Origin: Escherichia coli
Lineage (GTDB): Bacteria; Pseudomonadota; Gammaproteobacteria; Enterobacterales; Enterobacteriaceae
Length of the DNA stretch: 64,000 bases
Assembly: GCF_003018255.1 (NCBI RefSeq)
Contig: NZ_CP027440.1
Reading direction: 5' to 3' (one strand)
Part shown: positions 9,424-11,098 of the stretch, piece by piece
Numbering within the stretch: position 1 is the stretch's first letter
Layout of the letters: the number at the start of each line of letters is the position of its first letter
The notes under the pieces: generated by a model
What the model saw: the letters and a program-made list of their open reading frames with translations, nothing else
Databases searched by the model: none
What the model was told of the DNA's origin: nothing
Program-made: the position numbers and the translations under genes

Positions 9424-9654
9424 ATGCTGAAGAATCTGGCTAAACTGGATCAAACAGAAATGGATAAAGTGAATGTCGATTTGGCGGCGGCCGGGGTGGC
9501 ATTTAAAGAACGCTACAATATGCCGGTGATCGCTGAAGCGGTTGAACGTGAACAGCCTGAACATTTGCGCAGCTGGTTTCGCGAGCGGCTTATCGCCCAC
9601 CGTTTGGCTTCGGTCAATCTGTCACGTTTACCTTACGAGCCCAAACTTAAATAA
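9424..9654 (+). CDS. holE: DNA polymerase III theta subunit
   Basis: 76 aa from [38 protein letters not shown]; the ORF track has a 29-codon upstream extension. Confidence 0.85.
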
Positions 9655-9755
9655 AACTTATACAGAGTTACACTTTCTTACATAACGCCTGCTAAATTAT
9701 GAGTATTTTCTAAACCGCACCCATAATTTGCAGTCATTTTGAAAAGGAAGTCATT

Positions 9756-10412
9756 ATGTCGTTCTGGAAAGTTGCAGCAGCGCAATATGAGCCTCGTAAA
9801 ACCTCACTGACCGAACAGGTAGCTCATCATCTGGAGTTTGTGAGTGCCGCCGCCAGGCAACAATGTCAGCTATTAGTTTTTCCATCGCTTTCTTTACTGG
9901 GGTGTGATTATTCGCGACGTGCCCTTCCTGCCCCACCCGATCTCTCGCTGTTAGACCCGCTTTGTTATGCTGCAACGACCTGGCGAATGACCATCATTGC
10001 CGGCCTTCCCGTTGAATATAACGATCGCTTTATTCGTGGAATTGCGGTGTTCGCACCGTGGCGAAAAACACCAGGGATCTACCATCAGAGTCATGGTGCA
10101 TGTCTGGGCCGTCGTTCCAGAACCATCACGGTGGTCGATGAACAACCGGAAGGTATGGATATGGACCCGACCTGTTCACTGTTTACGACAGGGCAATGTC
10201 TGGGGGAACCCGACCTACTGGCATCTACCCGCCGCTTACAATTTTTTTCACATCAGTACTCAATTGCCGTGCTGATGGCAAATGCCCGTGGTAACAGTGC
10301 ACTATGGGATGAACATGGTCGTCTCATCGTTCGCGCCGATCGTGGTTCATTATTGTTAGTCGGTCAGCGTTCATCACAGGGTTGGCAAGGCGATATCATT
10401 CCATTACGCTAG
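9756..10412 (+). CDS. yobB: Carbon-nitrogen hydrolase (nitrilase-superfamily) protein YobB
   Basis: 218 aa ORF at the YobB position between holE and exoX. Confidence 0.75.
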   Translation: MSFWKVAAAQYEPRKTSLTEQVAHHLEFVSAAARQQCQLLVFPSLSLLGCDYSRRALPAPPDLSLLDPLCYAATTWRMTIIAGLPVEYNDRFIRGIAVFAPWRKTPGIYHQSHGACLGRRSRTITVVDEQPEGMDMDPTCSLFTTGQCLGEPDLLASTRRLQFFSHQYSIAVLMANARGNSALWDEHGRLIVRADRGSLLLVGQRSSQGWQGDIIPLR

Positions 10413-10435
10413 GCTTTTTCGGCCTGGAGCATGCC

Positions 10436-11098
10436 ATGTTGCGCATTATCGATACAGAAACCTGCGGTTTGCAGGGAGGGATCGTTGAGATTGCCTCTGT
10501 TGATGTCATTGACGGAAAAATCGTCAACCCCATGAGCCACCTGGTGCGCCCCGATCGTCCTATTAGTCCACAAGCGATGGCGATTCATCGCATCACCGAA
10601 GCCATGGTCGCCGATAAACCGTGGATTGAAGATGTGATCCCACACTATTACGGTAGTGAATGGTATGTCGCGCACAACGCCAGCTTTGACCGCCGCGTAC
10701 TGCCTGAGATGCCCGGTGAGTGGATTTGCACTATGAAACTGGCCCGTCGTTTGTGGCCAGGGATCAAGTACAGCAATATGGCGTTATATAAAACACGGAA
10801 GCTCAATGTACAGACGCCGCCGGGCCTGCATCATCACCGCGCGTTGTATGACTGTTATATCACCGCTGCGTTGCTTATCGATATTATGAACACCTCCGGC
10901 TGGACGGCAGAACAGATGGCCGATATCACCGGACGTCCGTCGTTGATGACGACCTTCACCTTTGGCAAATACCGTGGCAAAGCGGTTTCCGACGTTGCCG
11001 AACGCGATCCGGGCTATCTGCGCTGGTTGTTTAATAACCTGGACAGCATGAGCCCGGAGCTGCGTTTAACACTGAAACATTATCTGGAAAATACTTAA
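10436..11098 (+). CDS. exoX: Exodeoxyribonuclease X (DnaQ-like 3'-5' exonuclease)
   Basis: 220 aa from [12 protein letters not shown], the DEDD exonuclease motif I; the ORF track has an 18-codon upstream extension. Confidence 0.85.

Follow-up and report, generated by a model that had tools for sequence, protein, structure and literature searches.

Why does a gene encoding a nitrilase-fold protein lie tightly packed between two genes of DNA metabolism, and does this position say anything about what the protein does? The question is raised by a 64,000-nucleotide (nt) stretch of Escherichia coli DNA (assembly GCF_003018255.1, contig NZ_CP027440.1; hereafter the window, with positions counted from its first letter). 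Here, holE (9424-9654), encoding the theta subunit of DNA polymerase III, yobB (9756-10412) and exoX (10436-11098), encoding exodeoxyribonuclease X, follow one another on the plus strand. The original prediction, made from the letters of the sequence, took YobB to be a carbon-nitrogen hydrolase, possibly co-transcribed with exoX and functionally linked to DNA metabolism. We favour a different reading, to which we would give a probability of roughly 60%: that this is a known locus in which YobB is a catalytically dead nitrilase-fold ortholog maintained by selection, that yobB has its own OmpR-type promoter, and that its adjacency to exoX reflects synteny and exoX expression signals.

The family assignment of YobB stands. 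The 218-amino-acid (aa) protein matches the Pfam family PF00795, CN_hydrolase (4.9e-28; 98.6 bits against a cutoff of 23.2). When its AlphaFold2 (AF2) model was compared with the PDB using Foldseek, the top 50 matches were all members of the nitrilase superfamily (probability 1.0, template modelling score about 0.6), the best of them being PH0642, D-carbamoylase, Nit2, formamidase and amidases. The model has a predicted local distance difference test score of 72.6, falling below 60 for residues 110-180, and on this basis YobB is predicted to retain the nitrilase alpha-beta-beta-alpha fold.

What does not stand is the hydrolase, as the Glu-Lys-Glu-Cys catalytic set is gone. Locating the corresponding positions in YobB depended on intermediate sequences. 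A single-sequence search of the PDB with YobB covered only the N-terminal 50 residues, and a family profile about 100. Searching a library of 1.8 billion proteins with the YobB family profile recovered a clade of approximately 250-aa relatives that aligns over the full length of YobB and was needed as the bridge to solved enzymes. Among 20 such relatives, E44, K111, E118 and C143 are invariant, and the profile of the clade places these residues on the FPE, YrKiHL..E and ICxD motifs of solved nitrilases and amidases (3ivz, 5kha). Profile-profile alignment of the YobB family with this clade (hhalign; probability 100%, E = 4e-46) sets Ser44 (codon at 9885-9887, plus strand) opposite E44, the catalytic general-base Glu of the FPE motif. 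The same substitution is seen where LLVFPSLSLLG of YobB aligns with LIIFPELSVIG of the glutamine-dependent NAD+ synthetase 5kha. Both K111 and E118 lie within a 12-residue segment that is deleted in YobB (hhalign and MAFFT), while C143 falls opposite Val127 or a gap, within a gappy stretch. An independent MAFFT L-INS-i alignment agrees, and shows YobB to lack both the Cys strand and the beginning of the next helix.

These losses extend well beyond the window. Across 79 species-level YobB sequences, position 44 is occupied by Glu in 50, Ser in 26 and Ala in three, with Ser or Ala found in Escherichia, Citrobacter and Salmonella, and Glu kept in the remaining genera. An alignment check for a Glu-Lys-Cys triad had been proposed alongside the original prediction, and its outcome goes against the enzyme: besides Ser44 in place of Glu, no conserved Lys or Cys was found at the catalytic positions in any of the 79 species. 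The sole invariant Cys, C37, is not at the nucleophile position. Because the catalytic set that defines the superfamily appears to be lost, YobB would be unable to act as a canonical thiol-acyl carbon-nitrogen hydrolase. A description of this loss was not found in the literature searched.

The likely history of the loss can be read from relatives occupying the same genomic slot. In Pantoea sp. IMH, Erwinia sp. P6884 and Winslowiella toletana, a protein of 247-252 aa with its E-K-E-C set intact is encoded between holE and exoX, the Pantoea protein being WP_024968305. Between the same two genes, Buttiauxella encodes an incomplete protein of 243 aa that retains Glu and has lost the second Glu and Cys, and Atlantibacter and the unassigned contig L084 encode proteins of 241-245 aa that retain Glu and have lost Lys and Cys. 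Mangrovibacter and the unassigned contig L085 encode a protein of 234-238 aa after holE, with no exoX, in which Lys and Cys are lost and, in Mangrovibacter, Asp replaces Glu. Enterobacter, Kluyvera and Pluralibacter have 216-229 aa, further deletions and a retained Glu, and in the 218-aa proteins of Escherichia, Salmonella and Citrobacter the Glu has been replaced as well, again with the gene between holE and exoX in both groups. YobB is some 30-35 residues shorter than the active members of about 250 aa. From these comparisons, YobB appears to be a degenerate ortholog of an active amidase of about 250 aa that still occupies the holE-exoX slot in Erwiniaceae. These same-slot relatives suggest that, when Erwiniaceae and Enterobacteriaceae last shared an ancestor, an active enzyme already lay between holE and exoX, and that YobB descends from it. 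An in-situ decay series of this kind was not found described in the literature searched.

Stepwise loss of catalytic residues and segments might equally be expected of a gene that is simply decaying, one without a protein function of its own, whose frame persists mainly through exoX promoter and translation signals embedded within it. In keeping with such an account, YobB evolves three to five times faster than its neighbours, Klebsiella has deleted yobB and kept the last ~30 nt before exoX, and frameshifted, insertion-disrupted and deletion alleles exist. The pattern of substitution argues otherwise. Measured against cryptic Escherichia clades, the ratio of non-synonymous to synonymous substitution rates (dN/dS) of yobB is 0.057-0.076. 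This is about three times that of HolE, ExoX and PtrB (0.016-0.035) and comparable to that of CopC and CopD. Synonymous sites are near saturation along most of the gene, and many amino acids are invariant. A dN/dS of 0.06-0.08 with saturated synonymous sites points to selection on amino acids over the whole length of YobB, beyond its 3′ end. Further, in 78 of 80 species the frame spans 212-230 codons. Sixty complete E. coli genomes, sampled at even spacing, were compared by length and not by directly checking reading frames; 59 contain the full-length 657-nt gene as a match over exactly 657 nt with no net length change, and one carries an IS30 insertion in yobB. YobB protein has also been detected by mass spectrometry, crosslinked to AceF. 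It is thus quite unlikely that yobB is a gene in mere decay. It appears to be kept by purifying selection in Escherichia, Salmonella, Citrobacter, Enterobacter and their relatives, and the best label for its product is a conserved, catalytically dead nitrilase-fold protein, or putative pseudoenzyme.

Selection of this strength might also be expected if the old scaffold of YobB had come to support a new catalytic activity through non-canonical residues. C37, Y11, an LPxPP motif and R193-A-D195 are invariant, and the FPELSLTG loop persists in 50 of the 79 species although Lys and Cys were lost long before. However, the nucleophile strand and the start of the next helix are deleted, and C37, which precedes the old Glu by seven residues within one strand, is probably far from the pocket, judging from the fold. 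In addition, the Escherichia clade exchanged Glu for Ser or Ala with no sign of relaxed selection. We therefore consider a new activity rather unlikely. As a disarmed ortholog, YobB would most likely act non-catalytically, binding a ligand or partner through the remodelled face of the former active site.

If YobB is not an enzyme of DNA metabolism, what does its expression respond to? Transcription start sites (TSSs) mapped in K-12 (Kim et al. 2012) can be placed on the plus strand of the window at 9402 for holE (29 reads, 22-nt leader), 9717 for yobB (4 reads, 39-nt leader) and 10250, inside yobB, for exoX (2 reads, 186-nt leader). The published 51-nt string upstream of the holE TSS corresponds to window positions 9352-9402 with one mismatch, and that of yobB is exact at 9667-9717. 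A -10-like TACAAT (10237-10242, plus strand) lies upstream of the exoX TSS. Because synonymous sites there are not conserved between genera, the start at 10250 may be specific to Escherichia.

Upstream of yobB, in the 101-nt spacer that separates it from holE, lies a tandem response-regulator box, GTTACACTTTCTTACAT (9667-9683, plus strand; -50 to -34 relative to the yobB TSS), which is an OmpR site. Its core, GTTAC..TT.CTTAC, is at least 90% conserved in an intergenic alignment of 80 sequences, comprising the window and 79 loci, one per species. Read on the opposite strand, the box gives GTAAG-N5-GTAAC, which resembles the CpxR consensus. It also contains the motif TACACTT, which has been noted in a paper upstream of yobB, rlmA and adrB. 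GTTACACTTTCTTACAT shares 15 of its 17 positions with the published OmpR repeat GTTACATTTTGTTACAT (PMC5438342). A peak for OmpR, obtained by chromatin immunoprecipitation with exonuclease digestion (ChIP-exo), has been assigned to yobB-exoX, with repression (Seo et al. 2017, PMC5438342). Converting coordinates between genome versions, we infer that this peak overlaps the box.

Expression data accord with repression by OmpR. Deletion of ompR raises yobB from 39 to 367 fragments per kilobase per million mapped reads, a 9.4-fold increase (Seo et al. 2017, PMC5438342). This rise is accompanied by that of the Cpx and sigma-E genes degP, spy, htpX and yebE, and exoX (b1844) is not in the list of genes changed at least two-fold (PMC5438342). 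In addition, yobB belongs to the CpxR iModulon, and tables derived from EcoCyc give its regulators as Nac and phospho-OmpR. Thus yobB has a promoter of its own and responds as envelope-stress genes do, a response that exoX mRNA does not share.

The suggestion that yobB and exoX are co-transcribed consequently survives only in part. In its favour, the genes are 23 nt apart, no terminator-like site was found in that gap, and database-derived tables list a transcription unit yobB-exoX. For the same two reasons, the absence of a terminator and the database unit, some read-through from yobB into exoX is plausible. A scan of 9200-11300 for consensus promoters and terminators returned one promoter-like site, at the 3′ end of exoX, and two weak terminator-like stems at chance level. 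Against co-transcription stand the separate TSSs and the failure of exoX to follow the 9.4-fold rise of yobB. The pair has the shared strand, short gap and lack of a terminator expected of an operon, but not, in the literature data, the single promoter and co-varying mRNA.

The proposed link to DNA metabolism finds no support, and the comparative record points the same way as the regulatory one. Klebsiella and Cronobacter keep holE and exoX and lack yobB; conversely, Mangrovibacter and one unassigned contig keep holE and a yobB-like gene and lack exoX. Within Enterobacteriaceae, therefore, yobB and exoX were lost in independent events. The genes co-expressed with yobB, like its regulators, are related to the envelope. 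Together, the OmpR site, the grouping with envelope-stress genes and these independent losses leave a functional link of YobB to DNA metabolism unsupported. In Cronobacter, where yobB is absent, a GC-rich hairpin with a T-run, resembling a terminator, follows holE about 20 nt before exoX (locus L096, 3425-3500).

It follows that an active YobB hydrolase, co-transcribed with exoX and serving DNA or nucleotide metabolism, is extremely unlikely. Such an enzyme would be consistent with the significant Pfam match, with the shared strand, 23-nt gap, missing terminator-like site and tabulated yobB-exoX unit, and with synteny in 80 species. It is contradicted by the absence from E. coli YobB of Glu, Lys, the second Glu and Cys alike, by the separate TSSs and the indifference of exoX when deletion of ompR raises yobB 9-fold, and by the loss of yobB in Klebsiella and Cronobacter and of exoX in Mangrovibacter. 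Moreover, the regulators of yobB are OmpR, Nac and of Cpx type, none of them linked to DNA damage.

Why, then, have the two genes remained so close? A YobB query recovered 80 loci, one per species' genome, and in all 80 the order copD-copC (minus strand), holE, yobB and exoX (plus) and ptrB (minus) is kept. In the window, the yobB stop codon ends at 10412 and the exoX ATG begins at 10436, which leaves the 23-nt gap. Elsewhere, of the 79 loci measured (all but L079), 77 have a gap of 21-30 nt, and at L024 the two genes overlap by 7 nt. The holE-yobB-exoX arrangement is not due to chance, because gene order is kept in every locus and the gap in nearly all.

An answer may lie in the nucleotides at the end of yobB. 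A constrained block, GGTTGGCAAGGCGATATCATTCCATTACGCTAG (10380-10412, plus strand), comprises TTGGCA (10382-10387), a spacer of 17 nt and TACGCT (10405-10410), and has the consensus GGTTGGCAAGGnGAnATCATTCCnTTAsGCTAr. Normalised third-position entropy falls from 0.84 across the rest of yobB to 0.19 over its final ten codons (Mann-Whitney p = 1.3e-5, 70 species). The pattern TTGGCA-N17-TA[CG]GCT is found at 77 of 95 loci, and the 64-kb window contains it a single time. Klebsiella pneumoniae is particularly informative. It has no yobB, and its holE and exoX are 78 nt apart; a published ortholog table likewise assigns b1842 and b1844 to adjacent KPN genes, with no counterpart of b1843. Klebsiella nonetheless keeps GGTTGGCAAG...ATTCCATTACGCT as non-coding DNA 5′ of exoX, with the same 17-nt spacing and a rewritten middle (locus L095, 3440-3500). 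This is what a promoter would look like, given that spacing is kept while the intervening letters change. The survival of this block in Klebsiella was not found described in the literature searched.

The block is also complementary to the Shine-Dalgarno (SD) sequence and AUG of exoX, which would offer translation control as another role. RNAalifold over 15 genera found no compensatory changes in this anti-SD pairing and a consensus energy of -4 kcal/mol. The local hairpin predicted for the yobB-exoX junction was not significant against shuffled sequences (z = -0.41), and an Rfam scan of 9200-11300 returned just a chance match to miR-216 (E = 0.26). The block is probably an exoX expression element, a candidate promoter or translation-control element. 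In the mechanism we favour, yobB would be transcribed from its own promoter bearing the conserved OmpR-type box, and exoX from its own start inside yobB, with a conserved cis element in the last 30 nt of yobB. Tight adjacency would then be inherited synteny reinforced by exoX signals that overlap the yobB 3′ end, and not the mark of a shared DNA-metabolism pathway. Expression signals for exoX lying within the end of yobB would be a sufficient reason, at the cis level, for the rigid spacing.

Some lineages, Pluralibacter and relatives, carry a C-terminal extension of YobB of 10-13 aa, E-x-L-x-x-I-D-E-x-x-C-G-A (loci L037, L048, L051, L056, L069, L071, L076 and L077; proteins P0121, P0096 and P0061). 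Where the extension is present, synonymous sites of the 3′ block are less constrained and the region upstream of exoX differs.

Rigid spacing could also reflect a relationship between the proteins. YobB might be a non-catalytic partner or regulator of ExoX (or of theta/epsilon), with translational coupling through the fixed gap setting their stoichiometry. The 21-30-nt gap and conserved SD of 77 of the 79 loci measured would suit such coupling, as would the complementarity between the yobB 3′ end and the exoX SD and start codon, which terminating ribosomes could unmask. Synteny since the ancestor of Erwiniaceae and Enterobacteriaceae would also be in keeping with it. Each gene has been lost without the other, however, and their mRNA levels are uncoupled. 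The crosslink to AceF is the only YobB interaction reported in the literature searched, the predicted RNA pairing is weak and shows no covariation, and the block is kept in Klebsiella, which has no yobB to couple. This makes a partnership distinctly unlikely. We regard as very unlikely a more elaborate version, in which YobB is a disarmed nitrilase-fold adaptor or regulator of ExoX or theta-epsilon, controlled by OmpR and Cpx and translationally coupled to exoX through the 3′ element. If true, it would link envelope stress to DNA-end processing.

Several points nevertheless weigh against our preferred reading, that of a dead nitrilase-fold protein under its own promoter beside an independently signalled exoX. 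Synteny as stable as that of the 80 loci is equally expected from a partnership at the protein level. Few reads support the TSSs (4 at that of yobB, 2 at that of exoX), the absence of exoX from the list of changed genes is indirect evidence of its independence, and transcripts from the yobB promoter could plausibly run into exoX, given that no terminator was found. On the protein side, the invariant residues C37, H25, Y11, D185, R193 and D195 are candidates for another kind of catalysis. With an AF2 model of moderate quality, the exact fate of the Cys strand is judged from sequence alignments across a gappy region. Finally, retention of Glu44 in 50 of 79 species already lacking Lys and Cys hints at a residual function of the old active-site loop.

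The remaining features of the locus are ordinary, and the gene identities, co-orientation and 23-nt spacing originally described are confirmed by the list of open reading frames (ORFs), the sequence itself and profile matches. HolE, which is also in the RefSeq annotation, matches PF06440 (1e-38) and NF008207 over residues 1-76 of 76 (163 bits against a cutoff of 97). ExoX, a DnaQ-like DEDDh exonuclease, matches the equivalog NF005937 (463 bits, cutoff 202) as well as PF00929 and PF20600, and its translation contains the DEDDh motifs DTET (residue 6), HNASFD (80) and HRALYD (134). A mechanical ORF list starts exoX further upstream, at a TTG at 10382. The 220-aa form beginning with the ATG at 10436 is the one that fits the equivalog model from end to end, and is also the RefSeq-annotated start. 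An SD sequence, GGAG (10426-10429, plus strand), lies within the 23-nt gap; of the 78 species-level junctions listed, nearly all have an SD of the same type 6-8 nt 5′ of the exoX ATG, a few with GGAA or a shifted position.

Downstream, ptrB (oligopeptidase B; 11095-13155, minus strand, from the ORF list and RefSeq annotation) converges on exoX, and their ends overlap by 4 nt (11095-11098). The exoX-ptrB pair is among the convergent 'excludon' candidates of a 2025 survey (PMC12288877). RefSeq annotates the region as holE, yobB, exoX and ptrB. By megablast, a 1.9-kb region is 100% identical to E. coli chromosomes and is found in 5425 of 5426 complete genomes. At some of the related loci, a phage-type integrase, sometimes with an excisionase, adjoins yebY on its upstream side (Atlantibacter, Mangrovibacter, Salmonella, Buttiauxella and Winslowiella; loci L081, L082, L086, L094, L097 and L098), which suggests a recurrent site of prophage integration. 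In K-12, the sdsR/ryeA small-RNA locus lies at the position of the integrase beside yebY.

Variation within E. coli itself deserves mention. The yobB of the window is a minority allele: 387 of 5425 genomes carry a copy at least 99% identical to it, and most, K-12 included, are about 97.4% identical, which is a fairly large divergence for a core gene of one species. Large clusters of truncated and frameshifted YobB proteins led us to suspect widespread pseudogenisation in E. coli, an idea we rejected given the unchanged length in 59 of the 60 sampled genomes. Many truncated forms come from short-read assemblies. A homopolymer of seven T residues lies at 10242-10248, just 5′ of the published internal exoX TSS, and the large frameshifted cluster P0008 departs from wild type at this run. 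The variants P0039 and P0060 depart earlier, at residues ~138 and ~107 respectively. Such forms are seldom seen in complete genomes, and many may therefore be assembly errors.

A different kind of allele involves both genes. The 9-bp direct repeat CCAGGGATC has one copy in yobB (10071-10079) and another in exoX (10757-10765). Deletion between the copies reproduces P0059, a database protein annotated as 'exodeoxyribonuclease X' in which residues 1-108 of YobB are fused to the C-terminus of ExoX. P0059 differs from the predicted product by one allelic residue, having Arg where the window has Ser30. The deletion is a natural allele that destroys yobB and exoX together.

The cluster is thus an ordinary, previously annotated E. 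coli locus, whose genes, transcription-unit annotation, OmpR site and TSSs are already in databases and papers. It adds nothing new on DNA metabolism, and the main use of this analysis is to correct an annotation. The loss of catalytic residues, the decay series and the 3′ block are modest refinements and not a new kind of system. Still, the 3′ block is a candidate element driving or gating exoX expression that would account for the rigid gene order, and the stepwise series in situ, from active enzymes in Erwiniaceae to a dead one in E. coli, would represent a natural experiment on how a pseudoenzyme arises under selection.

Set beside known systems, the flanking genes hold no surprises. HolE, with its full-length subfamily match, is an ordinary ortholog of polymerase III theta, and ExoX, with a full-length equivalog match and DEDDh motifs, of exonuclease X. 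The window has the same genes and OmpR site as the yobB-exoX unit of the K-12 OmpR regulon (Seo et al. 2017). Compared with the unit as annotated, exoX also starts at a TSS of its own and its mRNA does not co-vary with that of yobB, which argues against a simple two-gene operon. YobB shares its predicted fold with small single-domain amidase-like nitrilases, such as Pyrococcus PH0642 (1j31), the P. abyssi enzyme 3ivz, the Nesterenkonia AN1 amidase and mouse Nit2. It resembles the nitrilase superfamily in sequence over the N-terminal 100 residues and the C-terminal beta-hairpins, and is clearly orthologous to active members of about 250 aa in the same genomic slot. It differs in having S44, a 12-residue deletion that removes Lys and the second Glu, and no Cys strand. 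In these respects it resembles the pseudoenzymes, a label it earns by sequence comparison: like them, it would lack catalytic residues and yet remain under purifying selection, near-universal in E. coli.

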